IMG/VR virus record: IMGVR_UViG_2778261315_000003 | Origin: a virus | Lineage: Duplodnaviria > Heunggongvirae > Uroviricota > Caudoviricetes | Direction: 5' to 3' (one strand) | Length of the DNA: 41,902 nt | In this document: piece after piece, positions 673 through 41,902 of the stretch | Layout: every line of letters starts with the position of its first letter | How positions within the stretch are numbered: position 1 is the stretch's first letter | Program-made: the position numbers and the translations under genes | Notes under the pieces: model-generated | What the model saw: only the letters and a program-made list of their open reading frames with translations | Told to the model about the DNA's origin: nothing | Databases searched by the model: none

Positions 673-1191
673 GTGATGAAATTAAAAAAATGTCTTCTGC
701 CTGTGGCAATGTTAGCGTCATTTACTCTGGCAGGATGCCAGTCAAATGCTGATGATCATGCCGCCGATGTTTATCAAACCGATCAACTGAATACCAAACA
801 AGAAACTAAAACCGTTAATATTATTTCCATTCTTCCCGCAAAAGTTGCCGTAGACAACGCCCAAAATAAACGGAACGCACAAGCCTTCGGCGCGCTTATT
901 GGCGCTGTCGCTGGCGGTGTTATCGGCCACAACGTCGGGTCTGGCAGCAATTCCGGAACGACAGCAGGTGCAGTTGGCGGCGGAGCTGTTGGCGCAGCAG
1001 CGGGTTCTATGGTGAATGATAAAACCTTAGTGGAAGGTGTTTCTTTAACATATAAGGAAGGCACCAAAGTGTATACCTCCACCCAGGTGGGTAAAGAGTG
1101 CCAGTTTACGACAGGTTTAGCCGTTGTTATTACCACGACGTATAACGAAACGCGTATTCAGCCAAATACCAAATGTCCTGAAAAGAGCTAA
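673..1191 (+). CDS. outer-membrane lipoprotein with glycine-zipper domain (YcfJ / 17-kDa-antigen-like)
   Basis: Signal peptide ending in lipobox LAGC; Gly/Ala-rich zipper FGALIGAVAGGVIGHNVGSG...AVGGGAVGAAAGS resembling E. coli YcfJ by recall; RBS-coupled to next gene. Confidence 0.7.
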   Translation: MMKLKKCLLPVAMLASFTLAGCQSNADDHAADVYQTDQLNTKQETKTVNIISILPAKVAVDNAQNKRNAQAFGALIGAVAGGVIGHNVGSGSNSGTTAGAVGGGAVGAAAGSMVNDKTLVEGVSLTYKEGTKVYTSTQVGKECQFTTGLAVVITTTYNETRIQPNTKCPEKS

Positions 1192-1206
1192 TAATCAGGA
1201 GGAGTC

Positions 1207-1746
1207 ATGAAGAAAGTTTTTCTTTGCGCCATCTTAGCCTCCTTAAGCTATCCGGCTATCGCCTCATCATTGCAGGATCAACTCTCGGCTGTCGCAGAAG
1301 CGGAACAGCAAGGTAAAAATGAAGAGCAAAGGCAGCATGACGAATGGGTCGCGGAGCGCAACAGGGAAATCCAGCAAGAGAAGCAACGTCGCGCAAACGC
1401 CCAGGCCGCGGCTAATAAAAGAGCGGCAACGGCAGCAGCGAATAAGAAAGCTCGTCAGGATAAACTGGACGCCGAAGCCACTGCGGACAAAAAACGCGAT
1501 CAAAGTTATGAAGATGAGCTACGTAGCTTAGAGATTCAGAAGCAAAAACTGGCGCTGGCGAAAGAAGAAGCCCGCGTTAAGCGCGAAAACGAATTTATCG
1601 ATCAGGAACTGAAGCACAAAGCTGCGCAAACCGATGTGGTGCAATCTGAAGCTGACGCAAACAGAAATATGACTGAAGGCGGTCGCGATCTGATGAAAAG
1701 CGTGGGTAAAGCAGAAGAGAACAAATCGGACAGCTGGTTTAACTAA
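1207..1746 (+). CDS. secreted coiled-coil protein, K/E/R/A-rich, unknown function
   Basis: N-terminal signal peptide MKKVFLCAILASLSYPAIASS; charged low-complexity body; good SD AGGAGG upstream; followed by terminator. Confidence 0.6.
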   Translation: MKKVFLCAILASLSYPAIASSLQDQLSAVAEAEQQGKNEEQRQHDEWVAERNREIQQEKQRRANAQAAANKRAATAAANKKARQDKLDAEATADKKRDQSYEDELRSLEIQKQKLALAKEEARVKRENEFIDQELKHKAAQTDVVQSEADANRNMTEGGRDLMKSVGKAEENKSDSWFN

Positions 1747-2447: not shown

Positions 2448-3073
2448 ACCGCCAGCACCTTACTGGCAGTGACGTACCGCGCGCGCCGGTCGTCGATGCC
2501 ATTCCTGCCACCATTGATAATCAGAGTTACACGTGCAATATCGCCGGTATACTTCATGCAACCTTTGCTGGAGAAGAACCACGCCGCGCTACGAGCCGCG
2601 TATTCGTCCTGCGCCAACAGTTCAGGATTCTCCAGCAGGTCAACTTTCAGACCGTTTCCACAGTCACGATAGTTATTCAAACCGGTAATCTGGATAAGCC
2701 CGCGCCCACGGTAATTCCAGCCATCACCAGGGGCATTGTTCCCCATGCGTTTGCTGTACACCAGATTTGCGATCGCGCGCTGGCGCTCGAGTGGCAATGG
2801 TGGTTCACCAGCACGGCGACCAAGTGCATTAGCCTGCCCCTGAGTGAGACGCCCAGCCCGAACGAAGTTAGCCAATCCGGTTACGCTGTAGTTGAAATTT
2901 TCCTGCAACCGGGTGAAGCCTCCAGACTCATGCCCGACCTGAGCAATAAACATTGCCTGATCTTCTGGTTTGCTGATACCAAACTCTTTCATCGCAGAAG
3001 TTATATGCGAGAACCAGCGAGCGGCCAGTTCCTCGCTGATACCAGCAGCTCGCTGGAATTGTTTAATCTCCAT
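2444..3073 (-). CDS. endolysin, glycoside hydrolase family 19 (chitinase-like)
   Basis: 209 aa; motifs [30 protein letters not shown] typical of GH19 phage lysins. Confidence 0.85.
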
Positions 3074-7248: not shown

Positions 7249-7263
7249 TTACCTTTCAGGTAA
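7249..7263. promoter_or_regulatory. palindromic operator-like site TTACCTTTCAGGTAA
   Basis: Perfect TTACC-N5-GGTAA; intergenic between tailspike start and divergent small gene. Confidence 0.6.
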
Positions 7264-7339
7264 TTTGCAAAACGTGCTGGATAGCAAACAAATTATTTGC
7301 TACTGTATAAATATACAGTTATTGCATGGAGAAGATAAG

Positions 7340-7597
7340 ATGCAGCAGTATCACTATCCACTGGAAGACGGATTTACCGAAAGGATTCACACGCCGGGAG
7401 GCGTCAGGTCACTGGTGGAGGGATCGCACTTGATGAAATTACTCCGGGATCTCGATAAGGATGGATTTAATGTCGATGGCCCACTTGCCGAACTGACTGC
7501 ACTGATTAACTACGTCACCAGCTCACAGATGTCTATGCGGGATCTGCAAACACATCTCGACTATTGTGCCGAACAATTACGAAAACAAACCCGGTAA
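7340..7597 (+). CDS. small protein paralogous to the C-terminal domain of the Bro-N protein
   Basis: Start moved to internal Met with GGAG RBS, because ORF 7217.. overlaps the operator; roughly 40% identity by eye to the Bro protein C-terminus (IH.P.GV..L.E.S.LM.LL..L..DG..V.G..AELT...Y...RD.QTH..Y). Confidence 0.5.
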   Translation: MQQYHYPLEDGFTERIHTPGGVRSLVEGSHLMKLLRDLDKDGFNVDGPLAELTALINYVTSSQMSMRDLQTHLDYCAEQLRKQTR

Positions 7598-7619: not shown

Positions 7620-8348
7620 CTATCGTTTCGCTTTGTGCTCATCCCAGCACGTTTTGCACCATGCCATTAAGCCGTCCGCATTTTGATTATTAGGGTAAAA
7701 GCTGGTTCGTTTTCTGCGGACATTACAAATTGGGCACCACTTCATATGGCGTGTATTCTTTGGGCCATCGAGACACCTTGCACACCATTTAGTCAATCCA
7801 TCTGGATTTTTTGACGATTTCCTGAATTTTTCATATGGAAGGTTTATTCTGCATCGCAAGCACTGCTTGCTACCACTTGAAACTCTGTTAGCTGATTCTT
7901 CTTTTGGCGGCGATACAGAAGGTATTCTTGCTGGCTCTGATATTGCCTGAGGTGCTTTTTTAGATGACTGAGACGATATGTCATCACCAGGGAATCTTCC
8001 ATGATATGCCGGACGCGTTGACACTCCAGGTGGAATCTCAGCTGTAAACGGCTTTGGCTGAATCAGTTGCCTCTCTTTTGCTAACTCCTGCTGTTTATAA
8101 TATGTCTGGATTACCGCACTATCATAAGCAGGAGGTGCGGAAATATTAGGCGCATTACCTCCAGTTTTTTGAAACTGAGTAGAGGTGTGTTCTATCACCT
8201 GTGTACGATTAATCGTTATCTCCCCATCTTCGGTCTTTATCGTTTTGTTATGATTAACGACCGTACGATCAGAGATCTTAGTCTTGTTCTGGTTGATAAC
8301 GTAAATAATCACCGCAACCACACCAACAACTATCCAGAAAACTTCCAT
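7620..8348 (-). CDS. membrane-anchored protein with Pro-rich linker and tandem C4 zinc-ribbon-like repeats
   Basis: 242 aa; N-terminal TM FWIVVGVVAVIIYVI; repeated C-x2-C ... NPDGL..WC..C units near C-terminus; own promoter region with two operators upstream. Confidence 0.6.
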   Translation of the reverse strand: MEVFWIVVGVVAVIIYVINQNKTKISDRTVVNHNKTIKTEDGEITINRTQVIEHTSTQFQKTGGNAPNISAPPAYDSAVIQTYYKQQELAKERQLIQPKPFTAEIPPGVSTRPAYHGRFPGDDISSQSSKKAPQAISEPARIPSVSPPKEESANRVSSGSKQCLRCRINLPYEKFRKSSKNPDGLTKWCARCLDGPKNTRHMKWCPICNVRRKRTSFYPNNQNADGLMAWCKTCWDEHKAKR

Positions 8349-8368: not shown

Positions 8369-8383
8369 TTACCTTAAAGGTAA
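8369..8383. promoter_or_regulatory. palindromic operator-like site TTACCTTAAAGGTAA
   Basis: Perfect TTACC-N5-GGTAA, 21 bp upstream of the 7620..8348 gene start. Confidence 0.6.
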
Positions 8384-8461: not shown

Positions 8462-8476
8462 TTACCTTTACGGTAA
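8462..8476. promoter_or_regulatory. palindromic operator-like site TTACCTTTACGGTAA
   Basis: Perfect TTACC-N5-GGTAA in the divergent intergenic region between the 7620..8348 and Bro genes. Confidence 0.6.
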
Positions 8477-8743
8477 ATTTACATCGCACTCCTCTTGTGC
8501 CATAGTAATCGGGCACTGGCAAAATCCAGTGCCGGGATTGGTCTCCCGGATTACTACAGAGGCACATATGCCGCATAAGCGGTTTTTTTATGTGTAAAGC
8601 GCACCTATTCTATGGTGGGCTGTGTGGGGGCACCGAAAGGTGCGCCGGGTTCCTTTGTAGCCGGTAAGACCAACTCTGCACAGTTCACCACCATCTGATT
8701 GGTCTCAGCGGTGGTGATTAACCTAACTACAAAGGTGATCGCC

Positions 8744-9436
8744 ATGAATACCAAACCTTCCATCTTTTCCTTTGAGTCATCCTGCCAGATCCGTATGTTC
8801 ATGATTGACGGAGAACCTTGGTTTGTCACCAAAGATGTGTGCAATGCTTTGAATATTGATGTTACACAAGCGAGAAAACTTGATAAAAAAGGCTGGAACA
8901 AAAAGGGGCTGTATTCAATACAGACCCCTGGTGGAATACAAGAACTATCCATCGTTTCAGAATCAGGTCTCTACATCCTTATTCTGCGTTGCAAAGAGGC
9001 AATGACTGAAGGAACGAGAGCATTCAGATTTCTTGAATGGGTTACAGGTGAGGTTCTTCCTCAGATCCGCCGCACCGGAAGTTACATTAAAAACTCGCTC
9101 CCGCAGGAAGAACGCATAAAGATGGTTGCCGACCAGGTAGCCAACGCCACGGCGTCAGCAGTAATGCAGGCGATGAAGATAGAGAACAAAACCTACAGTG
9201 CCCCACTGAAGCCCGGCTACCGCAGCCTGATTCATTCTCCGTCTGGTGTTCTCGGCCTGACGGAGAACTCACTGCTGATGAATCTGCTGAACCAGTTACA
9301 GGACGACGGGCACGACGTATCGGGCGCGGCGGCGGAGCTGACCACCATGTTCTGTTACATCGTTGGTGTGAGCAAATGCCTGCGTGATATCCAGACACAC
9401 GCAGAGTACATCAATGACAAGGCAGGGTTCTTCTGA
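8744..9436 (+). CDS. Bro-N domain protein, putative antirepressor
   Basis: Bro-N signature FSFE...IRMFMIDGEPWFVTKDVCNALNI...TPGGIQ...SESGLYILILR...FLEWVTGEVLPQIRRTGSY; start at Met 8744 with AGGTGA RBS. Confidence 0.8.
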   Translation: MNTKPSIFSFESSCQIRMFMIDGEPWFVTKDVCNALNIDVTQARKLDKKGWNKKGLYSIQTPGGIQELSIVSESGLYILILRCKEAMTEGTRAFRFLEWVTGEVLPQIRRTGSYIKNSLPQEERIKMVADQVANATASAVMQAMKIENKTYSAPLKPGYRSLIHSPSGVLGLTENSLLMNLLNQLQDDGHDVSGAAAELTTMFCYIVGVSKCLRDIQTHAEYINDKAGFF

Positions 9437-9521: not shown

Positions 9522-9536
9522 TTACCCGATTGGTAA
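9522..9536. promoter_or_regulatory. palindromic operator-like site TTACCCGATTGGTAA
   Basis: Perfect TTACC-N5-GGTAA, 22 bp upstream of the 9558 start codon. Confidence 0.6.
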
Positions 9537-9557: not shown

Positions 9558-9884
9558 ATGAGCAGAAGATATGTCAAGGAGCTGGCTATAGAGTCTGGCA
9601 CCCCTTTGGGTATCGTTCCTGGCTCCAACTATGCCAAGGCTTTAAACCGAGACTCTGTCGTCAAAGTTATATCAAGAGACATGAATATGGTCGGAGACGA
9701 TCTCAGACGGTCAGAAAATCGTGTTTATGCTGAATATATAGTAAAGAACGGAAAAAAAATTGCAGCGCCTGCTGGCGGAAAATGGGCAATAGTGACAGGG
9801 AAAAACTCAAATGCAAGAGGAAAACCAGAAGCTAAAGGAATGTCCTTCGACAAATATGCAAAAATCTATTGGGCAACCAAGTGA
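9558..9884 (+). CDS. hypothetical basic protein (about 108 aa)
   Basis: ORF with GAGGT RBS; Lys/Arg-rich; first gene of an operator-controlled two-gene cassette. Confidence 0.45.
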   Translation: MSRRYVKELAIESGTPLGIVPGSNYAKALNRDSVVKVISRDMNMVGDDLRRSENRVYAEYIVKNGKKIAAPAGGKWAIVTGKNSNARGKPEAKGMSFDKYAKIYWATK

Positions 9885-18663: not shown

Positions 18664-21134
18664 CAGAATCCCCCAACAGTAAGGCGAGGAATAACGGCAA
18701 GAACAGACAGCGGCAACGGATCAAGCTGACGGATTTTTACACGTCCGTTTTTGCCCCAGTTACTGTCCAGTTTCACTTCTACTTTTCCGGTAGCATCATC
18801 AACAGGATCATCGTAGAACTCGAATTCACGCTGTGGATATTCGTACCATTTACCGCCGGGCGTAGTCGCCCAGATGCCGCGACTGGCATTCACAACCAGA
18901 GTAACGGAGGGGATCACCTGTTTTTTGTCCAGCAGCGTTTCCTGTCCGTTAATGTTGATATCCAGTGTTTCGAATTCAGCAGTTATTGGCAGGCCGATGT
19001 GCACTACAGCCCCCGGAGATTCCAGCGTGACGGCACCTCCGGAAACCACTTTCTGTGGTTCCACGTTCGCATCAGAGAGAATGTTTACGGTCTGACCTTC
19101 AAGATGAGACAAGCCGCCAAATGCCCGGCGCGCCATCTGCCAGTTCGTGGTGGCCACATTCCTGAGGGATGGCGGGACGTTCCTGTTAGGACGAACCACT
19201 ACAGCGGTATTGCTGGTTACAGAAATAATGTCGCAACGTAATTCTTTTGACACTTCATCGCCAGTATCAGGATCCGTTCCGGTATAAGGGAACTGTAGTT
19301 GCGCGCCGACATCACTACTGGTGAAGTACGCACCACCAGAAACACTGATTGTATATTCCGCGCGGTAATCCCATTCGCCAGAACCACCAGTGATGATCAT
19401 CGTTCTGTCAGACGTATTTCTTCCATCATAGCTAAGGCCAGAATCAACAAAGAAAGCATCTTCATCGCTGGTAAATAAACGGCTGGACAGTCTCTCGATG
19501 TATCTCACTGTTTGCCCGTTAACGGTTCGGTTAACGACGAAATACACCGCATCTTCATTGCCTTCGCTGATACTGCATGTGCTTTCATATTTTCCGGTAC
19601 TGGATTGTGGTGCCCATGCGAAAACCTGCTGATCACGCAGATAGGTCATTACCAATAATTTACCGTCATCACGAATGCAGAATGCGCTGGAGTAAGGGAC
19701 AATCGAGAAGCACCAGTCAACAATGCTGTGCTTCTGAAAAAGATGATTGGCAAGGATAGTAAGGTCGTTCCCCTGATAGCCGTCAACATCGAATGAGTAG
19801 GCCAGATCACGGACAACACTGCCTTTCTCCTGGACGAACAGAGCAATATTCGCCACAGCAATTGGTGGGACGTTGCTTGAGCCATTTGATCCCTGAGAGC
19901 TGAATGCAAATGATGATGGGGTTAACACTTTGTTCTGGTCGCCGGTGATGACGTACTCACCTCCGGAAGTCAGCGCCACCAGCGAACCAACATCAATCAG
20001 GTGGCGGATCTCATTAACCTGACGCCCGGCATAGGTGTAGATAATTCTGTCGTCATCCTGCGTAGGATTGCTTTTGCCAAAATCCTTATAATCCCCGGTA
20101 CGGCTGGCCCAGATAGTCTGAGGGAACGCAGTCGATGCGGCGAAGTAAAGACGTTGTTGATAATAAACAACAGTGCCAGGATAACCATTAACACTGTTCC
20201 AGGCATATTTAGCCCATTTATAGCTGGCATTATCCTCGCCAACGACCTGCGAAGGGATATAGGAAATCACCTCGGCAGTTGCAGTAGTGCCGTTTACAGC
20301 AGTGATACGGGCAATGCCAAACCCACTGTGCAGATACTCCCACTCAATGCCAGTATCATCATCACCGGATCCGCCCCAGCCATCCCATGATGTGCCTTCT
20401 GTATGCGAAGGGCGCAAAGTGCCTGTTTTGCCTGCTGTAACGGCGCGATAGTAGTTACTGTCTGCACGGCGAATATCGCCAATCGACGTACTCTTACTGG
20501 TTTCCCATACCGGCACTGAATCCACTGCAGGCTGTTCCAGATAGAACAATTTGCCTACCTGCTCCGCGCCAAAAATAGAGGCGCTTGCCGTTAACGTAAT
20601 TGCCCCGGTGCTGGCGCTGGCATAAACCGTCACTGACTCGTCAATATTGATATCTTCAAATGGCCCGTTCTTCGTTACCACATCAACCAGTTGCCAGTTG
20701 TCATGCGCGTAGCGGCGCAACTCTTTCGGCGGGTATGCCGGGTGAACCAGCGTAAGCACGTCGGCGCTTTGCGTGAATTTAATTCGGAACAGATCGGCTT
20801 CAGTATATGGCGTGGCAATTTCATAAATAACATTGCTGCTGTTCAGCACCAACGCACCATCTTTGATAACGCGCATGTACTGGTGCCCGAACTCCAGAGC
20901 ATAGGTCTGAACCGTCGAGAACTGGAACGGGATCAGGCGGCATTTCCGATTTGGGTATTTGGCGGCACCGATAAAACGCGTACCAGGTCGATTCTCAACG
21001 CCGCCATACTGCCGCACGATAAAGTTATCGCACTTGCGCAATGCCACCTGGTACTTCGCCATGTCGATACGACCGTACAACGACGGTCCAATCTCACCAC
21101 CGGCAAAGCTGGGCTGGATCCAACTGATAGCCAT
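18663..21134 (-). CDS. tail tubular protein B / nozzle (T7 gp12-like)
   Basis: 823 aa beta-rich protein directly after gp11-like adaptor; size and position match podovirus nozzle. Confidence 0.6.
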   Translation of the reverse strand: MAISWIQPSFAGGEIGPSLYGRIDMAKYQVALRKCDNFIVRQYGGVENRPGTRFIGAAKYPNRKCRLIPFQFSTVQTYALEFGHQYMRVIKDGALVLNSSNVIYEIATPYTEADLFRIKFTQSADVLTLVHPAYPPKELRRYAHDNWQLVDVVTKNGPFEDINIDESVTVYASASTGAITLTASASIFGAEQVGKLFYLEQPAVDSVPVWETSKSTSIGDIRRADSNYYRAVTAGKTGTLRPSHTEGTSWDGWGGSGDDDTGIEWEYLHSGFGIARITAVNGTTATAEVISYIPSQVVGEDNASYKWAKYAWNSVNGYPGTVVYYQQRLYFAASTAFPQTIWASRTGDYKDFGKSNPTQDDDRIIYTYAGRQVNEIRHLIDVGSLVALTSGGEYVITGDQNKVLTPSSFAFSSQGSNGSSNVPPIAVANIALFVQEKGSVVRDLAYSFDVDGYQGNDLTILANHLFQKHSIVDWCFSIVPYSSAFCIRDDGKLLVMTYLRDQQVFAWAPQSSTGKYESTCSISEGNEDAVYFVVNRTVNGQTVRYIERLSSRLFTSDEDAFFVDSGLSYDGRNTSDRTMIITGGSGEWDYRAEYTISVSGGAYFTSSDVGAQLQFPYTGTDPDTGDEVSKELRCDIISVTSNTAVVVRPNRNVPPSLRNVATTNWQMARRAFGGLSHLEGQTVNILSDANVEPQKVVSGGAVTLESPGAVVHIGLPITAEFETLDININGQETLLDKKQVIPSVTLVVNASRGIWATTPGGKWYEYPQREFEFYDDPVDDATGKVEVKLDSNWGKNGRVKIRQLDPLPLSVLAVIPRLTVGGF

Positions 21135-26930: not shown

Positions 26931-26945
26931 TTACCTTTCAGGTAA
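26931..26945. promoter_or_regulatory. palindromic operator-like site TTACCTTTCAGGTAA
   Basis: Perfect TTACC-N5-GGTAA upstream of the head operon; identical to site at 7249. Confidence 0.6.
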
Positions 26946-27267: not shown

Positions 27268-27344
27268 GTGGCATTAGCTCAGTTGGACAGAGCAACCGCC
27301 TTCTAAGCGGTTGGTCGCAGGTTCGAATCCTGCATGCCACGCCA
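27268..27344 (+). tRNA. tRNA-Arg (anticodon UCU)
   Basis: Cloverleaf folded by hand: acceptor GTGGCAT/ATGCCAC, D-arm GCTC..GAGC, anticodon stem ACCGC/GCGGT with loop CTTCTAA, T-arm GCAGG-TTCGAAT-CCTGC, discriminator G, encoded CCA. Confidence 0.9.
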
Positions 27345-29528: not shown

Positions 29529-30121
29529 TGATTACCATCCTGACGTTCTTTGAGTCGCTTCCTGGCTGCTGCTATGCGATCAGCAATTGTCACATTCACA
29601 TTAACATCCAGACGTTCTTTGAACGCGTTGACATCAACATGCTTACCAATCAGCTCAAGGTTCTTCACCTTGTCAGGCCATTTAATTTTTTTGAGGATTG
29701 TCTCTATCGAATCCTCGTTCATGTTCATGATGGTCGACGACAGATCAAAGCCACTAAGCGTAGTGCGCCAGATTTTCGGCCACTCACGGATTGGTTTAAG
29801 GCTCCCATCGTCGTTGAGGATGTCGATCACGTCCATCTGGTCGATCTCCACCAGGCGCATGAGAACGTAATCAGCACTGACGCGCATTCGTTTGTTGCGC
29901 TCCTCCATCAACTCGGCAATCCGTTTTTGAATGCGTTCATCGCGCATCATGACACTGGCTTTAACTGCCGCTGTATTTGGGGAGAATCCTGCGTTAATCG
30001 CTGCCTGAGTCTGGTTTTCAGGCGTTTTGATGTATGACTGACAATAAGCCTCCTGCATTGCTGTTAGTGGCTTAAATTGCGTTGATTTGCGTTTATAGGT
30101 TTTAGGTTCAGCAGGCATCAT
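29525..30121 (-). CDS. terminase small subunit
   Basis: Motif AYCQSYIKTPENQTQAAINAGFSPNTAAVKAS typical of small terminase HTH family; start placed at internal Met (ORF extends to 30199). Confidence 0.65.
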   Translation of the reverse strand: MMPAEPKTYKRKSTQFKPLTAMQEAYCQSYIKTPENQTQAAINAGFSPNTAAVKASVMMRDERIQKRIAELMEERNKRMRVSADYVLMRLVEIDQMDVIDILNDDGSLKPIREWPKIWRTTLSGFDLSSTIMNMNEDSIETILKKIKWPDKVKNLELIGKHVDVNAFKERLDVNVNVTIADRIAAARKRLKERQDGNQ

Positions 30122-30195
30122 AACCACCGTGGTAATTGTTACCGTTGTGGTAATAATACCATGCAAAATAAAGCCGCCATAGTTGGCGGCAGTAT

Positions 30196-30429
30196 TCAAA
30201 ATCCATCAAATTCATCGTAAAAACTCTCGTCAAGATACCCTTCCCATTTACCGCGAATGAAAATTACATCCTCGCCGCAAGGGTGCTGACTGTCGATAAC
30301 TATATCCCTCCTGGCGCAACCATACTTATGCATGAGAAATTTAACCTCTTTCGGAAAATTTGCTGAGTTATCTCTCATATCTTCAAGGTCGTAGCGTATT
30401 TTTGGCATAACACCTTCGTGACATGTCAC
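30196..30429 (-). CDS. hypothetical protein
   Basis: 77 aa ORF, coupled in early/nin-like operon. Confidence 0.4.
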   Translation of the reverse strand: MTCHEGVMPKIRYDLEDMRDNSANFPKEVKFLMHKYGCARRDIVIDSQHPCGEDVIFIRGKWEGYLDESFYDEFDGF

Positions 30430-30767
30430 ACTATTAATTTCGTTTCATGCCAGCCTTTAGTCACCCAGCATTGCGAGTCACCATTACACGGGCATGAATT
30501 CACAGGAACTCTCTCGCCGCACTTACCGCAACGTTTTCTGCTGATCGATTTTATACGCCCGCGCACGCGTGCATCATCCTGGCGGATCAGTAACGCTATA
30601 TACTCACCAAATTCGTAAGGCGCACGCCCGGGGCGACGCGTGGCACAGTTACGCTCCAGCATTTCAATTTCCTGAGCATCAAGCACAATCTCCAGCTTAC
30701 GTACACCGGATTCAGCTTGTCTGGCTCTCTGAGCGGCTTTGCGCTCTGCTGCTGATTTAGCCATCAA
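30426..30767 (-). CDS. hypothetical protein with Cys-rich C-terminus
   Basis: 113 aa; basic coiled N-terminus, C-terminal CGKCG...CPCNGDSQC. Confidence 0.45.
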   Translation of the reverse strand: MMAKSAAERKAAQRARQAESGVRKLEIVLDAQEIEMLERNCATRRPGRAPYEFGEYIALLIRQDDARVRGRIKSISRKRCGKCGERVPVNSCPCNGDSQCWVTKGWHETKLIV

Positions 30768-33805: not shown

Positions 33806-33820
33806 TTACCCCTGAGGTAA
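33806..33820. promoter_or_regulatory. palindromic operator-like site TTACCCCTGAGGTAA
   Basis: Perfect TTACC-N5-GGTAA, 4 bp upstream of the 33802 start codon. Confidence 0.6.
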
Positions 33821-33867
33821 TTAAAAACCACATAAGACACGAAATCAATAGATCTTAGAACATTTTA

Positions 33868-33882
33868 TTACCTAGCAGGTAA
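33868..33882. promoter_or_regulatory. palindromic operator-like site TTACCTAGCAGGTAA
   Basis: Perfect TTACC-N5-GGTAA; second site in same intergenic region, 48 bp centre-to-centre from previous. Confidence 0.6.
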
Positions 33883-34696: not shown

Positions 34697-35510
34697 CCCA
34701 CACCCCTTCTATCCAGTCAGTGTTATTCCAGTCAAGCTCATCGCTTTTCCCGACGTTTTTTGATTTTCCCCTGATATGATTTACGTGCCTGGCGAATTTT
34801 TGTTCCCACTGAACCTGCGTGAACACTTTGCCCTCAGCCATCCAGTAATCCCGGAATGCAGCAAGTTCAGCAGGTGTAAATTCCGGTTCCGGCAGGGCCG
34901 TTCCCCACAGCGCAGCACGCCGTCGAAAATCCGGCGATGGATGCCAGCCATCGGCCATCGGAAATTTCCCAATAGGTTCACTCAGGCCATCCAGAAATGC
35001 AGGTTCTGCCACCTGCAACGGCGTACCGTTCGCTTCACTGGTCGGATCACTCTCGCGCGCGTGTGCTATGTGTGGGGTTTTATATATATCTTCCTCTTCC
35101 TCTGGTAACTCCTTTTGTAACGCTGTTGGCGTTACTTTTTGCGTTACTCGTTTTCGATGCTCTGCCACTCTTCTATTCGTAAGTGCACGTTTTTTCGATG
35201 ATTCTCCATTGTGTCGCTCAAAGTTTGGAAGAATTAGTTTGCCGTCATGATAAGCAAGCCATCCGACGCTAATGAGGGCGTCAGCAAATCCTGTAATAAA
35301 AGCGAGTCTATCAAGTACTCCTTTTGTAACGCTGCCAGCGTTACCGTCTATTGTTTGCTGGTCAGCCCATGCCCATATACGAACCAGCTTTCCAATAACA
35401 GCATCTGGATCAATACCCAGAATTTCTGCTATCTGAAAAATTTCAGGTTTATCAGGAGTGATAACTTCAACCTTAATCCAGCTGCTTGCCATAGGTTTCC
35501 CCTCTTGCAC
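34668..35510 (-). CDS. replication initiator with DnaT-like C-terminal domain (lambda O position)
   Basis: 280 aa; C-terminal DGWHPSPDF...FTPAELAAFRDYWMAEGKVFTQVQWEQKFARHV typical of DnaT-domain phage replication proteins; precedes and overlaps P-like gene. Confidence 0.7.
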   Translation of the reverse strand: MQEGKPMASSWIKVEVITPDKPEIFQIAEILGIDPDAVIGKLVRIWAWADQQTIDGNAGSVTKGVLDRLAFITGFADALISVGWLAYHDGKLILPNFERHNGESSKKRALTNRRVAEHRKRVTQKVTPTALQKELPEEEEDIYKTPHIAHARESDPTSEANGTPLQVAEPAFLDGLSEPIGKFPMADGWHPSPDFRRRAALWGTALPEPEFTPAELAAFRDYWMAEGKVFTQVQWEQKFARHVNHIRGKSKNVGKSDELDWNNTDWIEGVWDEINSRTSQ

Positions 35511-35685
35511 TCTTTAGTGCACAAGCAAATTCATTACGATGGCGGTTGGCGCTATTCATTGCACATTCAACACATGTTCCGTTCAGAACATACCTTTCAG
35601 AGAGATGGCCGTGACGGCACCGCTTTCCTGTGAAATAGCGATTTAACCCGGCTTTTGCGGCCTCCATTCTGGTTACTATCTTCAA
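35473..35685 (-). CDS. small zinc-finger protein (CII position)
   Basis: 70 aa with C-x-H ... C-x2-C pattern (RCRHGH...CVEC). Confidence 0.4.
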   Translation of the reverse strand: MKIVTRMEAAKAGLNRYFTGKRCRHGHLSERYVLNGTCVECAMNSANRHRNEFACALKSARGETYGKQLD

Positions 35686-35763: not shown

Positions 35764-35778
35764 TTACCTTTGAGGTAC
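35764..35778. promoter_or_regulatory. near-palindromic operator-like site TTACCTTTGAGGTAC
   Basis: One mismatch from TTACC-N5-GGTAA; intergenic between Cro-like gene and downstream replication operon. Confidence 0.45.
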
Positions 35779-35833
35779 GAATAGATATGAAAAGACCGCC
35801 GGATGGCGGTCTACAGAGGGTTGTGGCTGGATA

Positions 35834-36064
35834 TCATGAGTAGAAGAAGTATGCCAGTTCTGCTTTTGAGCGCAGCCATTGTCTTGTTTTACAGGCTTTA
35901 AAAAGCCCATTCATCAATACCTTACCTGGCATTTTGCGCTTACCTGTTAAGTGAGTCTGGATATAGTGACTCGTCGTTCCGGCTTCCTGTGCGAAGGCTT
36001 CACGCTCATCCGGAGTAAGTGCAAGCCAGTGCTTTTTGAAATCGAAATGTCCGTTATCGCTCAT
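35834..36064 (-). CDS. Cro-like small DNA-binding regulator
   Basis: 76 aa, divergent from repressor gene, HTH-like LTPDEREAFAQEAGTTSHYIQTHLTGKRKMP. Confidence 0.5.
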   Translation of the reverse strand: MSDNGHFDFKKHWLALTPDEREAFAQEAGTTSHYIQTHLTGKRKMPGKVLMNGLFKACKTRQWLRSKAELAYFFYS

Positions 36065-36100
36065 AGCTATTGCCTGATATTTATTTCAGATAATAAATAT

Positions 36101-36115
36101 TCACCCATAAGGTAA
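36101..36115. promoter_or_regulatory. operator-like site variant TCACCCATAAGGTAA
   Basis: One-mismatch variant in the repressor/cro intergenic region. Confidence 0.4.
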
Positions 36116-36131
36116 CAAAAATCAAGGATAG

Positions 36132-36146
36132 TTACCTATGAGGTGC
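36132..36146. promoter_or_regulatory. operator-like site variant TTACCTATGAGGTGC
   Basis: Two-mismatch variant, adjacent to the perfect site at 36149. Confidence 0.4.
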
Positions 36147-36148
36147 AT

Positions 36149-36163
36149 TTACCTGTTGGGTAA
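36149..36163. promoter_or_regulatory. palindromic operator-like site TTACCTGTTGGGTAA
   Basis: Perfect TTACC-N5-GGTAA in the divergent repressor/cro promoter region. Confidence 0.6.
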
Positions 36164-36218
36164 TATTGCTTTAAATTGAATCATCTACTGATTCATATAT
36201 GAGGCGATTTTCCAGAAA

Positions 36219-36803
36219 ATGAAAAGTATCCAGGACGTCCGCAGGCAAAATCTCAACGACTTGATCGACCGTGAATTCAATGGTGTTCAGACGCGGATGG
36301 CAGAAAAACTTGGAACTCAGGCAAATCTGGTAAACCGCTGGGCTCTTGGCAAGAAGGTTATCGGCGACCAGGTTGCGCGAAAAATTGAAGCTGCCGCCAA
36401 TAAACCCCGTAACTGGCTTGATATCGATCGCTCGCTTTCTCAGGAAGGTTTTCAGCCTGTCGGCCCAAGCGACATTGGTCAGCTGGCGGCTCACAACCTG
36501 GAACGCTGGATGAGCGAAAGCCGCGACCTTTCAACTCAGGGAAAACTTCACCGCGCATCCGGCGTCGCCCAGGTGACAATCAGCCGCCTGTTAAACAATG
36601 AGGTCAGTGTTTCCATTTCCACCCTGGAGAATGTTGCATCAGCATTCGGGCGTCACGGCTATGAATTACTGATTCACCCGCACGACCCTGCGACCATCAA
36701 CTATGACCGCTCGCGCTACGCATTGTTACCCGAAACCGAGAAAGCAAAGATCGAAAGTTATATTGAATTTGTCATCAACCAGAACGAAAAAAACAAACAA
36801 TAA
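36219..36803 (+). CDS. tandem-HTH (XRE-family) repressor, CI position, no peptidase domain
   Basis: 194 aa; two HTH-like segments (VQTRMAEKLGTQANLVNRWALGK and LHRASGVAQVTISRLLNNE); no S24/LexA-like C-terminal domain visible. Confidence 0.65.
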   Translation: MKSIQDVRRQNLNDLIDREFNGVQTRMAEKLGTQANLVNRWALGKKVIGDQVARKIEAAANKPRNWLDIDRSLSQEGFQPVGPSDIGQLAAHNLERWMSESRDLSTQGKLHRASGVAQVTISRLLNNEVSVSISTLENVASAFGRHGYELLIHPHDPATINYDRSRYALLPETEKAKIESYIEFVINQNEKNKQ

Positions 36804-36820
36804 AATCATATTTTTCAGTA

Positions 36821-36850
36821 AGTAAGCCGCCTTCTGGCGGCTTTTTTATT
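36821..36850 (+). terminator. rho-independent terminator after repressor gene
   Basis: AAGCCGCC-TTCT-GGCGGCTT followed by TTTTATT. Confidence 0.55.
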
Positions 36851-36860
36851 GCCTATACTA

Positions 36861-36875
36861 TTACCTAATAGGTAA
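36861..36875. promoter_or_regulatory. palindromic operator-like site TTACCTAATAGGTAA
   Basis: Perfect TTACC-N5-GGTAA upstream of a TTGACA -35-like hexamer (36895..36900). Confidence 0.6.
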
Positions 36876-36922
36876 TTTTTTTAACTCATATCTATTGACA
36901 TCAAACCAAATACGCATAATTA

Positions 36923-36937
36923 TTACCTCAACGGTAA
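36923..36937. promoter_or_regulatory. palindromic operator-like site TTACCTCAACGGTAA
   Basis: Perfect TTACC-N5-GGTAA just downstream of the candidate -10 region and 20 bp before an RBS/ATG. Confidence 0.6.
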
Positions 36938-40651: not shown

Positions 40652-41902
40652 TTATTCTCCCGCCATCCACTTCTCAAACTTCGACGGGGAGAACGGAATC
40701 AGATCCGTATGCTCCCCGTCAATCCAGGAATCAATCATATCTGCCCACTGCTGCAACATGTAGGCGCGCTGTCTGGCGTATTCCGCTTTGTTATATACGG
40801 CGCGCACACCTTTCTGCTCATGTGCCAGAGCCTTTTCAATCCAGTCTGAAGGATAACCAGCCTCATGCAACAACGTACTGGCTGTACGGCGCATATCGTG
40901 TACGGTGAAGTCCTGAATATGCTCACCATCTTCATTTATTATTTTCACCGTTCTGTCGATCAGAGAGTTCAACGCGGCATTAGATAATGGCTTCCGGAAA
41001 TTGTAACGACCAGGAACCAGGTATTCACTTCCACCAGCGCACATCTGCAACCCAACCAATATATCCTGTGCTTGTTTAGGCAGGTAAATAACGTGCGCCC
41101 GGCTTCCCTTCATGCGGTCTGAAGGAATTGTCCATGTCCATTTTTTAAAATCTATTTCATCCCACGTTGCATTGGTGAATTCGCCCTTACGAACCATAGT
41201 GATAAGCACCAGTTTTAAAGCCATTTTCATAGTGCCCATAGCACCAATGGCATCCAGCGTGCGGAAGAACAGGCCAATTTCTTCTGGTGTCAGTGTTCGC
41301 TCTCGTGGTTTAAATATGGCGATAGACGAAGGTTTAATGTCAGCCGCAGGATTAAACAAACCATGACCACGGTCATTGGCGTGACGGTATACGCTACTGA
41401 TGATCTCCCTGGCCTGCACTGCTGTTGCCCGACCACCGCGTTCGACAATCCGGTCACACAAATCACGAACCATCGATGTGGTAATTTCAGCCATCATTTT
41501 GTTGCCAAGAACCGGAAGTATGTCACGGTCGATCACCGCCTGCTTCATTGCGCGGGTACTGTCAGCCAGGATGACGTGTTTCATATAACTGTCGGTATGT
41601 ACCGCAAACGTCTCGGCACCACGAATCTTTTTGATACCGTCACGTTTAGCCGCAGCCGGCGACTGGCCTGCTTTAAGCAGCTTCTTTGCAGCAATCAGTT
41701 CTTCTCGCGCTTCTGCCAGGCTGATACCGTCACGCCCATACTGCCCGATTACCAGTGTTTCGCGGCGACCGTTGATACGGTAGTCATAGCGAAACGAGAC
41801 CGTGCCTGACGTAAGCACAGCTACATACAGCCCGTCACGATCGGAGACCTTGTACAGTTTGTCCTGCGGCTTGAGGTTTTTTAATTTTGTATCGGTAAGC
41901 AC
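40652..41902 (-). CDS. int: tyrosine integrase, P4 / CP4-57 type (N-terminus at window edge)
   Basis: 416 aa; N-terminal arm-binding region and C-terminal catalytic region (HDMRRTASTLLHEAGY...RAVY); ORF reaches the window end with a GTG start. Confidence 0.9.
   Translation of the reverse strand: MLTDTKLKNLKPQDKLYKVSDRDGLYVAVLTSGTVSFRYDYRINGRRETLVIGQYGRDGISLAEAREELIAAKKLLKAGQSPAAAKRDGIKKIRGAETFAVHTDSYMKHVILADSTRAMKQAVIDRDILPVLGNKMMAEITTSMVRDLCDRIVERGGRATAVQAREIISSVYRHANDRGHGLFNPAADIKPSSIAIFKPRERTLTPEEIGLFFRTLDAIGAMGTMKMALKLVLITMVRKGEFTNATWDEIDFKKWTWTIPSDRMKGSRAHVIYLPKQAQDILVGLQMCAGGSEYLVPGRYNFRKPLSNAALNSLIDRTVKIINEDGEHIQDFTVHDMRRTASTLLHEAGYPSDWIEKALAHEQKGVRAVYNKAEYARQRAYMLQQWADMIDSWIDGEHTDLIPFSPSKFEKWMAGE

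Follow-up and report, generated by a model that had tools for sequence, protein, structure and literature searches.

A probable Rep/Ant-type immunity switch with dispersed operators in a phiV10-type prophage of Escherichia coli

The immunity region analysed here is a switch whose mode of action is very probably that of Rep/Ant in Salmonella phage SPC32H, where the repressor Rep is countered by the antirepressor Ant. The window, that is the whole stretch of 41,902 nucleotides, is by its sequence a phiV10/TL-2011b-type Uetakevirus prophage of E. coli (phiV10/epsilon15-type), and its immunity region shares 97-99% DNA identity with those of phiV10, TL-2011b, ZX5 and HEMP4. Prophages of this type are present at an identity of at least 95% in 540 of 5426 complete E. 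coli genomes (~10%). The Rep/Ant antirepression of the podophage SPC32H was reportedly described by Kim and Ryu in 2013 and by Kim et al. in 2016, with the PDB entries 5D4Z and 5D50; epsilon15 has this system as well. This type of switch is already known, its mechanism having been solved structurally for the related SPC32H, and the finding is real but ordinary. Homologies, motif statistics, the conserved geometry of the sites, the LexA box and the RNA complementarities were computed directly from the window.

Results

The Repressor Aligns over Its Whole Length to the Repressor of SPC32H

An earlier note on this DNA had described an immunity switch in which a repressor gene faces a Cro-like gene across 154 bp, with three operators in between. 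The open reading frames and their spacing are as described there (gap between cro and rep 36065..36218, 154 bp), and three sites resembling TTACC-N5-GGTAA are found where it had placed them. The features of the region are as follows; putative operators and the cro terminator are given without strand.

35764..35778: putative operator, 1 mismatch, flanked by the cro terminator and the 70-aa gene 35473..35685
35793..35812: cro terminator
35834..36064, minus strand: Cro-like 76-aa gene, first of the rightward early operon (ORF)
TTGTTA(36118)-17-TATTAT(36090), minus strand: predicted cro promoter (promoter scan)
36101..36115: putative OR operator, TCACCCATAAGGTAA, 1 mismatch to TTACC-N5-GGTAA
36132..36146: putative OR operator, TTACCTATGAGGTGC, 2 mismatches, perfect at the same position in epsilon15
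36149..36163: putative OR operator, TTACCTGTTGGGTAA, 0 mismatches, 17 bp from the 36132 site
36219..36803, plus strand: rep, predicted non-cleavable prophage repressor of 194 aa (ORF, homology)
36824..36843, plus strand: intrinsic terminator after rep
36861..36875: putative OL operator (perfect), ahead of the PL -35
36895..36923, plus strand: predicted PL promoter TTGACA-17-AATTAT of the early-left operon (recombination genes)
36923..36937: putative OL operator (perfect), abutting the PL -10

Residues 1-190 of Rep aligned to residues 2-197 of the SPC32H repressor (PDB 5D50_A, phmmer, E 4e-42), and the C-terminal fragment 5D4Z was likewise matched (phmmer, PDB, E 4e-20). Rep is 42% identical to gp38 of epsilon15, and its identity to the structurally studied protein is just 42%, compared with 83-87% for Ant. 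The phiV10 proteins p40 and p41 are 100% identical to Rep and to the Cro-like protein of the window, respectively, and the phiV10 record already lists the former as a 'putative repressor' with 'two helix-turn-helix motifs'; the ZX5 paper states that the repressor of ZX5 and phiV10 ORF40 are identical in sequence. A search of NCBIfam returned no family-level match for Rep, Ant, Bro or Cro. An AlphaFold model of Rep calculated without an alignment was unusable (pLDDT 45); the solved homologue spans the full length.

Two stretches of Rep matched the Pfam profile HTH_3 (38.5 bits against a cut-off of 23), residues 106-147 best, and a YdaS-type HTH match covers residues 21-61. The repressor had previously been read as a tandem-HTH protein, and two HTH-like segments are indeed there; however, the second one probably dimerises the protein and does not bind DNA, because its SPC32H counterpart is described as a dimerisation domain. 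That account (PMC9986798) gives the domain order of SPC32H Rep as DBD-MDD-CAD, a DNA-binding domain followed by a middle dimerisation domain and a C-terminal domain for tetramerisation and Ant binding. The C-terminal half of the window protein aligns to the dimerisation and tetramerisation domains, and the alignment places, with approximate borders, a DNA-binding HTH at residues ~1-70, an HTH-like dimerisation domain at ~89-150 and a tetramerisation/Ant-binding domain at ~155-190. It is very unlikely that both HTH segments of each subunit contact DNA. Such a reading could draw on the Pfam matches of residues 104-148 to HTH_3, HTH_26 and LacI-type domains and on weak PDB matches of this segment to XRE-family regulators, but it conflicts with the role given for the SPC32H segment, and the operator, a plain 15-bp palindrome whose 5-bp half-sites are set 10 bp apart, fits a single HTH in each Rep subunit. 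A BLAST comparison of the N-terminal with the C-terminal half of Rep revealed no similarity, so that a recent HTH duplication is not supported.

The absence of a LexA/S24 autocleavage domain, likewise claimed by the earlier note, is borne out by our analysis. An S24 fold, which it had named as a finding that would refute its view, was looked for in Rep by Pfam: Peptidase_S24 gave no match at E<=1, other domains account for the whole length, and Rep aligns fully to SPC32H Rep. Rep carries no LexA-like peptidase domain; it is probably not cleaved. A ZX5 lysogen, which carries the same repressor sequence, responds to mitomycin C with an increase in titre from 1e7 to 1e9, and this inducibility might be ascribed to RecA-stimulated cleavage of Rep despite the lack of a recognisable S24 domain. 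This is extremely improbable, given the whole-length alignment to a solved protein of different architecture and given that the LexA-controlled Ant described below already explains SOS inducibility.

Putative Operators Are Conserved at OR and OL and Dispersed over the Prophage

The 76-aa protein encoded opposite rep matches phrog_35, 'transcriptional repressor', with an E of 5.6e-13 and is 76% identical to gp39 of epsilon15; it is the position of the gene that suggests the role of a Cro protein. The operator 36101..36115 falls in the -35/spacer of the predicted cro promoter. All three OR sites recur at identical positions in Enterobacter phage Tyrion and in epsilon15, with differing spacer bases, and this conservation supports the weak 36132 site. 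A consensus scan of the plus strand of OR for a rep promoter yielded nothing convincing. The OL pair has a spacing of 62 bp, as in phiV10 and epsilon15.

Perfect copies of TTACC-N5-GGTAA occur 11 times in the 41.9 kb, whereas ~0.04 are expected from base composition; when up to 2 mismatches are allowed, 39 matches are obtained as compared with 12.6 +/- 3.5 in shuffled sequences. The copies stand before most transcription units, in at least 10 promoter regions. In addition to the sites at OR and OL, they comprise the following.

7249..7263: putative operator (perfect), divergent region between the tail-fibre gene and ant; the epsilon15 equivalent is annotated 'protein_bind repressor'
8369..8383: putative operator (perfect), immediately ahead of the 242-aa gene 7620..8348 (minus strand)
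8462..8476: putative operator (perfect), abutting the predicted isrK/C4/bro promoter TTGATT(8433)-18-TATCAT(8462)
9522..9536: putative operator (perfect), at the predicted promoter of the gene 9558..9884
26931..26945: putative operator (perfect), ahead of the late structural operon (minus strand)
30121..30153: putative operator pair, 18 bp apart and with 1 and 0 mismatches, immediately before the small-terminase gene (minus strand)
33806..33882: putative operator pair (both perfect, 62 bp apart), around the promoter of the DUF1064/nin-like operon (minus strand)

phiV10 and epsilon15 share these half-sites and positions as well as the spacings of 17/18 bp and 62 bp. Syntenic pairs lie at the small-terminase gene of both phages, and both retain the 62-bp spacing of the pair at 33806..33882. 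In the epsilon15 RefSeq record, such sites, among them the site 2931..2947 that is syntenic to the operator at 26931..26945, are annotated as binding the repressor ('protein_bind repressor'). The site at 7249 is located ~50 bp ahead of the LexA box, and the promoter that it serves may be that of the divergent tail-fibre gene and not that of ant. The earlier note had overlooked the OL operators at 36861 and 36923 and the genome-wide set of operators. Its comparison of the three sites with an OR1-3 arrangement holds only for their positions; the same operator recurs in at least 10 promoter regions.

By their arrangement, the TTACC-N5-GGTAA sites are putative operators that Rep would bind at OR and OL. 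A Cro protein usually recognises the same operators as the repressor, and the dispersed sites might thus be bound by the Cro-like protein, or by the phrog_536 regulator encoded at 30426..30767, in place of Rep. We consider this highly unlikely: the sites are concentrated at OR and OL, around rep, they are annotated as repressor sites in epsilon15, and overexpression of Rep silences the holin and endolysin transcripts in ZX5. In the latter experiment, free phage was abolished and the transcripts of these lysis genes decreased by >99.9%.

A Small Putative Antirepressor Gene Follows a LexA Box

Away from the immunity region and adjoining the tail-fibre gene, as does the Ant of ~86 aa in the SPC32H system, the window encodes a short protein preceded by a LexA box (given without strand).

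7301..7320: near-consensus LexA box, TACTGTATAAATATACAGTT, 18/20 to TACTG(TA)5CAGTA
7340..7597, plus strand: ant, putative antirepressor of 85 aa, orthologue of SPC32H Ant (PDB 5D50_E)

Ant matched the SPC32H protein in 5D50_E with an E of 1.4e-46, 72 of the 83 aligned residues being identical (~87%); it is 99% identical to p24 of phiV10 and 83% identical to gp19 of epsilon15 and syntenic with both. The box, a perfect CTGT-N8-ACAG with an AT-rich core, precedes the ant ATG by 20 nt, and five phages, including phiV10, epsilon15, ZX5 and TL-2011b, have it conserved ahead of ant. According to PMC7380047, SPC32H Ant is made upon cleavage of LexA. By analogy, it is the 85-aa Ant and not the Bro-N protein that would be the antirepressor used for SOS induction, as in the Rep/Ant family, and from the homology we assume that Ant contacts Rep in the window as well. 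The small ant gene and its LexA box had escaped the earlier note.

Ant belongs to phrog_450, which is labelled 'unknown function', has no Pfam family and is called 'hypothetical protein' nearly everywhere; because of this lack of a label, pipelines and readers are drawn to the Bro-N gene instead. The family is small, with 45 representatives at 50% identity clustering in an exhaustive HMMER search of 1.8 billion proteins. The best 120 of 147 matches of a word-indexed search have a length of 59-142 aa and are mostly stand-alone Ants of 85-86 aa. Fusions of the Ant-like domain were found by the exhaustive HMMER search and not among these best 120 of 147; they include fusions behind AntA and Rha N-terminal domains, and the fold of Ant may serve as a repressor-targeting module that is portable between proteins.

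A Bro-N::Ant Fusion Lies behind a Putative Operator and an isrK/C4 Leader

The earlier note had proposed that induction depends on an antirepressor and had put forward a Bro-N protein for this role. The gene is present, and it belongs to the following module.

8513..8589, plus strand: isrK-type leader RNA with its own terminator (Rfam RF01394, 74.7 bits, gathering 50)
8608..8695, plus strand: C4 antisense RNA (Rfam RF01695, 78.6 bits, gathering 45)
8744..9436, plus strand: bro, Bro-N::Ant fusion of 230 aa, candidate second antirepressor

The Bro-N domain (PF02498) covers residues 16-106 (Pfam, E 1.8e-13, 51.4 bits, cut-off 25.6), and residues 149-225 form an Ant-like domain (E 1.6e-13); in a second comparison, the C-terminus was 43% identical to Ant (E 2e-20). 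The protein is 81% identical overall to ORF4 of ZX5 and differs from it in the N-terminal Bro-N domain. Overexpression of ZX5 ORF4 lowered prophage counts 1000-fold, from 1e9 to 1e6, and ORF4 alone is named as anti-repressor in the ZX5 paper; the words 'LexA' and 'SPC32H' are absent from its text.

The C4 RNA ends 48 nt before the bro ATG, an arrangement that is the same in phiV10, ZX5 and TL-2011b. One of its loops, CCTTTGTAG (8652..8660), is complementary over 9 nt to CTACAAAGG (8727..8735) at the ribosome-binding site (RBS) of bro, and a second loop, AGACCAA (8667..8673), is complementary over 7 nt to TTGGTCT at both 8699..8705 and 8538..8544. The isrK leader thus holds decoy copies of the C4 targets, namely TTGGTCT at 8538..8544 and CTACAGAGG at 8554..8562; the latter was read directly from the letters, is not among the results of the exact-match scan and pairs with the C4 loop via one G·U. 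The only good LexA box is that of ant, and no good one was found near the Bro-N gene. A GC-rich match with 1 mismatch inside C4, at 8620, was rejected as a box.

That the Bro-N protein drives prophage induction, as the earlier note had suggested, is unlikely. It contains a Bro-N domain, matches PHROG families labelled 'anti-repressor Ant' and ends in an Ant-like domain, and its ZX5 homologue lowers lysogeny when overexpressed, all of which keeps it a candidate antirepressor. However, it is not the gene with the LexA box, and with a promoter that abuts a Rep operator and an RBS complementary to the C4 antisense RNA, it should stay silent for as long as Rep is in place. Moreover, the isrK/C4/Bro-N::Ant module is absent from epsilon15, which therefore switches without a Bro-N protein, and the phiV10 copy of the gene is truncated by a frameshift. 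Antirepressor-dependent induction as such agrees with what is published for the homologous SPC32H Rep/Ant; the SOS antirepressor would be Ant (7340..7597). Because it is preceded by a Rep operator and the isrK/C4 leader and has no LexA box, Bro-N::Ant is probably a second antirepressor that is not wired to the SOS response.

Discussion

From these features we infer DNA binding by Rep, the Rep-Ant contact and the regulatory logic as follows. A Rep oligomer would bind the 15-bp palindromes, three between rep and cro and two bracketing PL, as well as further copies before the terminase, late, nin-like and accessory genes. As operators stand before most transcription units, Rep probably shuts off the lytic programme at each promoter individually. 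Upon DNA damage, LexA would leave its box at the ant promoter and Ant would be made; it would then bind the C-terminal domain of Rep, break up the DNA-binding oligomer and free the operators. PMC9638917 describes that SPC32H Rep binds DNA as a tetramer, which is broken by Ant. In the lysogen, Bro-N::Ant would be held off by the Rep operator at its promoter and by pairing of C4 with its RBS. It could reinforce induction once Rep begins to fail, or act in trans on related prophages.

The window shares with SPC32H and epsilon15 the gene order cro, OR, rep, OL and recombination genes. The SPC32H system likewise comprises a full-length Rep homologue, an Ant homologue and a LexA box upstream of ant, and epsilon15 has the same operator half-sites and the same layout of OR, OL and dispersed sites. 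As in systems of the lambda CI, P22 C2 and LexA type, a repressor gene and cro diverge from three operators, a second set of operators lies at PL and rep is transcribed in the direction of PL. In contrast to these autocleavable repressors, which are characterised by a C-terminal S24 peptidase domain with a Ser-Lys dyad, Rep has no S24 peptidase domain and oligomerises through different domains. The operators are, unlike those of lambda, also dispersed at late and accessory promoters and in this respect more closely resemble those of P1 C1.

In N15, AntC is likewise a LexA-controlled antirepressor of a non-cleavable repressor. The antirepressors of 186 (Tum), Gifsy-1/-3 and Fels-2 follow the same logic, in which the SOS response acts via LexA on a small antirepressor, which in turn inactivates the stable repressor (PMC7380047); however, we saw no sequence kinship with them, Ant of the window matching only its own family.

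In comparison with epsilon15, the E. coli lineage adds the isrK/C4/Bro-N::Ant module next to ant. This module resembles the immI region of P1/P7, with its c4 antisense RNA over ant, and isrK-orf45-anrP of Gifsy-1, where C4 or isrK also lies directly upstream of an antirepressor-type gene. As in the P1/P7 immI type, the loops of C4 show complementarity to the RBS that follows and to upstream decoys, and a repressor operator is located at the promoter. In Gifsy-1, IsrK controls the translation of anrP (PMC4825925). In contrast to both, the regulated protein is here a Bro-N::Ant fusion that would target an SPC32H-type Rep. Moreover, the end of a 28-aa upstream ORF (8612..8698) is 45 nt away from the bro start; in Gifsy-1, stop and start overlap (PMC4825925).

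For the switch as such, the discovery value is small and the practical use lies in annotation. It is possible, though somewhat less likely than not, that the E. coli phiV10-type lineage has a two-tier antirepressor circuit acting on one repressor, in which the LexA-controlled stand-alone Ant would be the trigger and Bro-N::Ant would be released only when Rep falters. We found no description of such a circuit in the accessible literature, including the ZX5 paper. If true, it would provide positive feedback or a trans-acting anti-immunity against related prophages. The isrK/C4/Bro-N::Ant module poses a modest, testable question on layered antirepressor control.

Immunity locus and repressor

The earlier note placed the immunity switch correctly: the feature is real, and the core of that reading is sound. 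The ORF coordinates of the divergent gene pair were confirmed, as were the three operator copies in the rep-cro divergent region (OR), which proved to be TTACC-N5-GGTAA palindromes:

35834..36064 (-), 76-aa Cro-like ORF, divergent to the 194-aa ORF
36101, OR operator, 1 mismatch, inside the -35/spacer of the overlapping predicted cro promoter (-; TTGTTA-17-TATTAT)
36132, OR operator, 2 mismatches
36149, OR operator, 0 mismatches
36219..36803 (+), 194-aa repressor ORF (rep), separated from the 76-aa ORF by exactly 154 bp

In line with the proposed lack of an autocleavage domain, the Pfam search revealed no Peptidase_S24 match in the repressor Rep, even at E<=1. HTH_3 matched above threshold (38.5 bits) in two stretches, the best comprising residues 106-147, and residues 21-61 gave a YdaS-type HTH match. 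The repressor of the Salmonella phage SPC32H, for which a crystal structure exists (5D50_A), matches residues 1-190 at E 4e-42, and the fragment 5D4Z aligns with the C-terminal half of Rep; Rep shares 42% identity with its epsilon15 orthologue. PMC9986798 divides the SPC32H Rep into three: a DNA-binding domain at the N-terminus, a dimerisation domain in the middle and, at the C-terminus, a domain for tetramerisation and Ant binding. The second HTH-like segment of our Rep (residues ~104-148) maps to this middle domain and, searched alone, yielded beyond SPC32H Rep only weak matches to XRE-type regulators. The designation 'tandem HTH' is therefore correct for the sequence only: by homology, the second copy would serve dimerisation, and a third domain (~155-190) had been overlooked. 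The operator, a simple palindrome whose 5-bp half-sites are separated by one helical turn, fits one HTH per Rep subunit.

Operators throughout the window

The window contains 11 perfect operator copies, compared with ~0.04 expected from base composition. Allowing up to two mismatches, we obtained 39 matches versus 12.6 +/- 3.5 in dinucleotide shuffles, none of which reached 39; the motif thus exceeds chance. The sites are not confined to OR, but are likewise found at further positions:

7249, 8369, 8462 and 9522, accessory and antirepressor region
26931, before the late operon
30121 and 30139, immediately before the small-terminase gene (terS)
33806 and 33868, bracketing a promoter for DUF1064/nin-like genes
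35764, after the cro terminator
36861 and 36923 (OL), bracketing a strong predicted PL (TTGACA-17-AATTAT)

phiV10 and epsilon15 carry identical half-sites at syntenic loci, with 8 and 11 perfect copies, respectively; the epsilon15 RefSeq record annotates seven of its sites as 'protein_bind: repressor, lysogeny'. Both phages keep the OR geometry of three sites with spacings of 17 and ~30 bp, the 62-bp spacing at OL and the nin-like promoter, and the 18-bp pair before terS. Moreover, an OR alignment of the window, Enterobacter phage Tyrion and epsilon15 indicates that spacers vary while half-sites are conserved. The pairs 36861/36923 and 33806/33868 lie exactly 62 bp apart centre to centre (~six helical turns) with the promoter in between, a spacing that would suit a single Rep tetramer bridging both sites.

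A probable LexA-controlled antirepressor

The earlier note had rightly proposed that induction depends on an antirepressor, as an SPC32H-type ant gene with a LexA box is present:

7301..7320, LexA box TACTGTATAAATATACAGTT, 20 nt upstream of the 85-aa ORF, the single excellent box in the window
7340..7597 (+), ant, 85-aa ORF matching 5D50_E

The product aligns with the crystallised SPC32H antirepressor at E 1.4e-46 (72 of 83 aligned residues identical), and the LexA box with the adjacent operator 7249 is kept in phiV10, epsilon15, ZX5 and TL-2011b. By this homology, the canonical antirepressor is the 85-aa Ant; the earlier note had missed both it and its LexA box. According to PMC7380047, LexA cleavage leads to synthesis of Ant, which inactivates the repressor by protein-protein contact; PMC9638917 states that SPC32H Rep binds DNA as a tetramer, which is broken when tetrameric Ant takes two Rep dimers. 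We infer every binding step in the window from homology: LexA cleavage would free ant, and Ant would contact Rep and break the tetramer, whereupon repression would be lost. The window Rep is 100% identical to phiV10 ORF40, and the ZX5 repressor is stated to have this same sequence (ZX5 paper). In ZX5, the titre rose from 1e7 to 1e9 on mitomycin C treatment, and Rep overexpression abolished free phage and reduced holin and endolysin transcripts by >99.9% (ZX5 paper).

Ant shares 83-87% identity with the corresponding epsilon15 and SPC32H proteins, whereas Rep reaches only 42%, despite the same operators and the supposed Rep-Ant contact. In view of this contrast, cross-induction is conceivable between phages of the E. 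coli and Salmonella types.

A candidate second antirepressor with an isrK/C4 leader

The Bro-N protein put forward in the earlier note as an antirepressor candidate is genuine according to Pfam; it is, however, the secondary candidate next to Ant.

8462, perfect operator, abutted by the predicted bro promoter (TTGATT-18-TATCAT)
8513..8589 (+), isrK-type RNA in the bro leader
8608..8695 (+), C4 antisense RNA, in tandem with isrK
8612..8698, 28-aa upstream ORF overlapping C4
8727..8735, bro ribosome-binding site CTACAAAGG
8744..9436 (+), bro

Residues 149-225 of the bro product are homologous to Ant (E 1.6e-13 versus 5D50_E; 43% identity to the window Ant). From ~residue 100 onwards it hardly differs from ZX5 ORF4 (81% identity overall); when overexpressed, ZX5 ORF4 brought prophage counts down from 1e9 to 1e6 (ZX5 paper). 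Given the Ant-like domain, this near-identity and the overexpression effect, it is a credible second antirepressor. Both leader RNAs score well above the Rfam gathering score. One C4 loop, CCTTTGTAG, can pair with the bro ribosome-binding site, and the other loop is complementary to TTGGTCT at 8699..8705, while the isrK leader carries decoy copies at 8538..8544 (a second TTGGTCT) and 8554..8562 (with one G·U). P1/P7 immI has the same design, with a C4 antisense RNA before an antirepressor-type gene and loops complementary to its RBS, and the module resembles the Gifsy-1 isrK-orf45-anrP cassette.

The window scan for LexA boxes revealed none near bro; whereas ant has a LexA box, bro has a Rep operator and the C4 leader. 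phiV10, ZX5 and TL-2011b all carry the module. Since it is absent from epsilon15 and frameshifted in phiV10, it is dispensable for the basic switch: the phiV10 Bro-N protein p23 (19646..20230) is truncated inside the Ant-like domain, and phiV10 thus probably lacks a functional second antirepressor. The one mildly new angle is that two antirepressors are layered, the first controlled by LexA and the second by Rep plus C4; we found no description of this in the available literature.

Other features of the prophage

673..1191 (+), Gly-zipper/TraT-like protein
1207..1746 (+), DUF5384 protein
7620..8348 (-), 242-aa protein (phrog_6762), N-terminal membrane helix and C-terminal Cys-rich repeats
27268..27344 (+), tRNA-Arg (anticodon TCT)
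35473..35685 (-), 70-aa Cys-rich protein in the cII position (phrog_1081, unknown function)
40652..41902 (-), P4-type integrase gene

The first two ORFs (673..1746) occupy the stretch that separates the lysis cassette from the attachment/integrase end; they are absent from phiV10 and are probably lysogenic-conversion morons. The gene for the 242-aa protein has a perfect Rep operator 21 bp before its start, and the repeats of its product are similar to zinc ribbons of the Endonuclease VII, Lar and HNH kinds; TL-2011b marks this region only as misc_feature. The tRNA gene separates the terminase region from the portal region, runs opposite to the late genes and has a counterpart at the same place in phiV10. 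The 70-aa gene has its own operator (35764) upstream, as well as the cro terminator. Because the window ends exactly on the integrase start codon, it looks like a prophage/phage record cut at this gene boundary.

Distribution of the immunity system and the Ant domain

The immunity region is 97-99% identical to the Escherichia phages Phi05_2388 B, vB_EcoP_ZX5, HEMP4, TL-2011b and phiV10 (genus Uetakevirus), ~77% identical to Tyrion, and found in 540 of 5426 complete E. coli genomes. Rep and Cro equal phiV10 p40 and p41 at 100% identity, and the p40 record mentions 'two helix-turn-helix motifs' and similarity to the putative epsilon15 repressor. With the same protein in phiV10 and ZX5, operators annotated in epsilon15 and the SPC32H mechanism solved, the system is already known.

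An exhaustive HMMER search placed the Ant-like domain in only 45 representative clusters at 50% identity. Most are stand-alone proteins of 80-95 aa; in a few the domain is C-terminal, behind Bro-N, AntA or Rha N-terminal domains. This suggests that Ant may be a portable repressor-targeting module, its fold being the part that would give repressor specificity. Escherichia, Salmonella, Citrobacter, Klebsiella and other enterobacteria encode close stand-alone homologues, of which nearly all are annotated as hypothetical; no Pfam family covers Ant, and its PHROG is phrog_450 ('unknown function'). A family characterised both by experiment and by structure goes by 'hypothetical protein' in almost every genome, an annotation gap.
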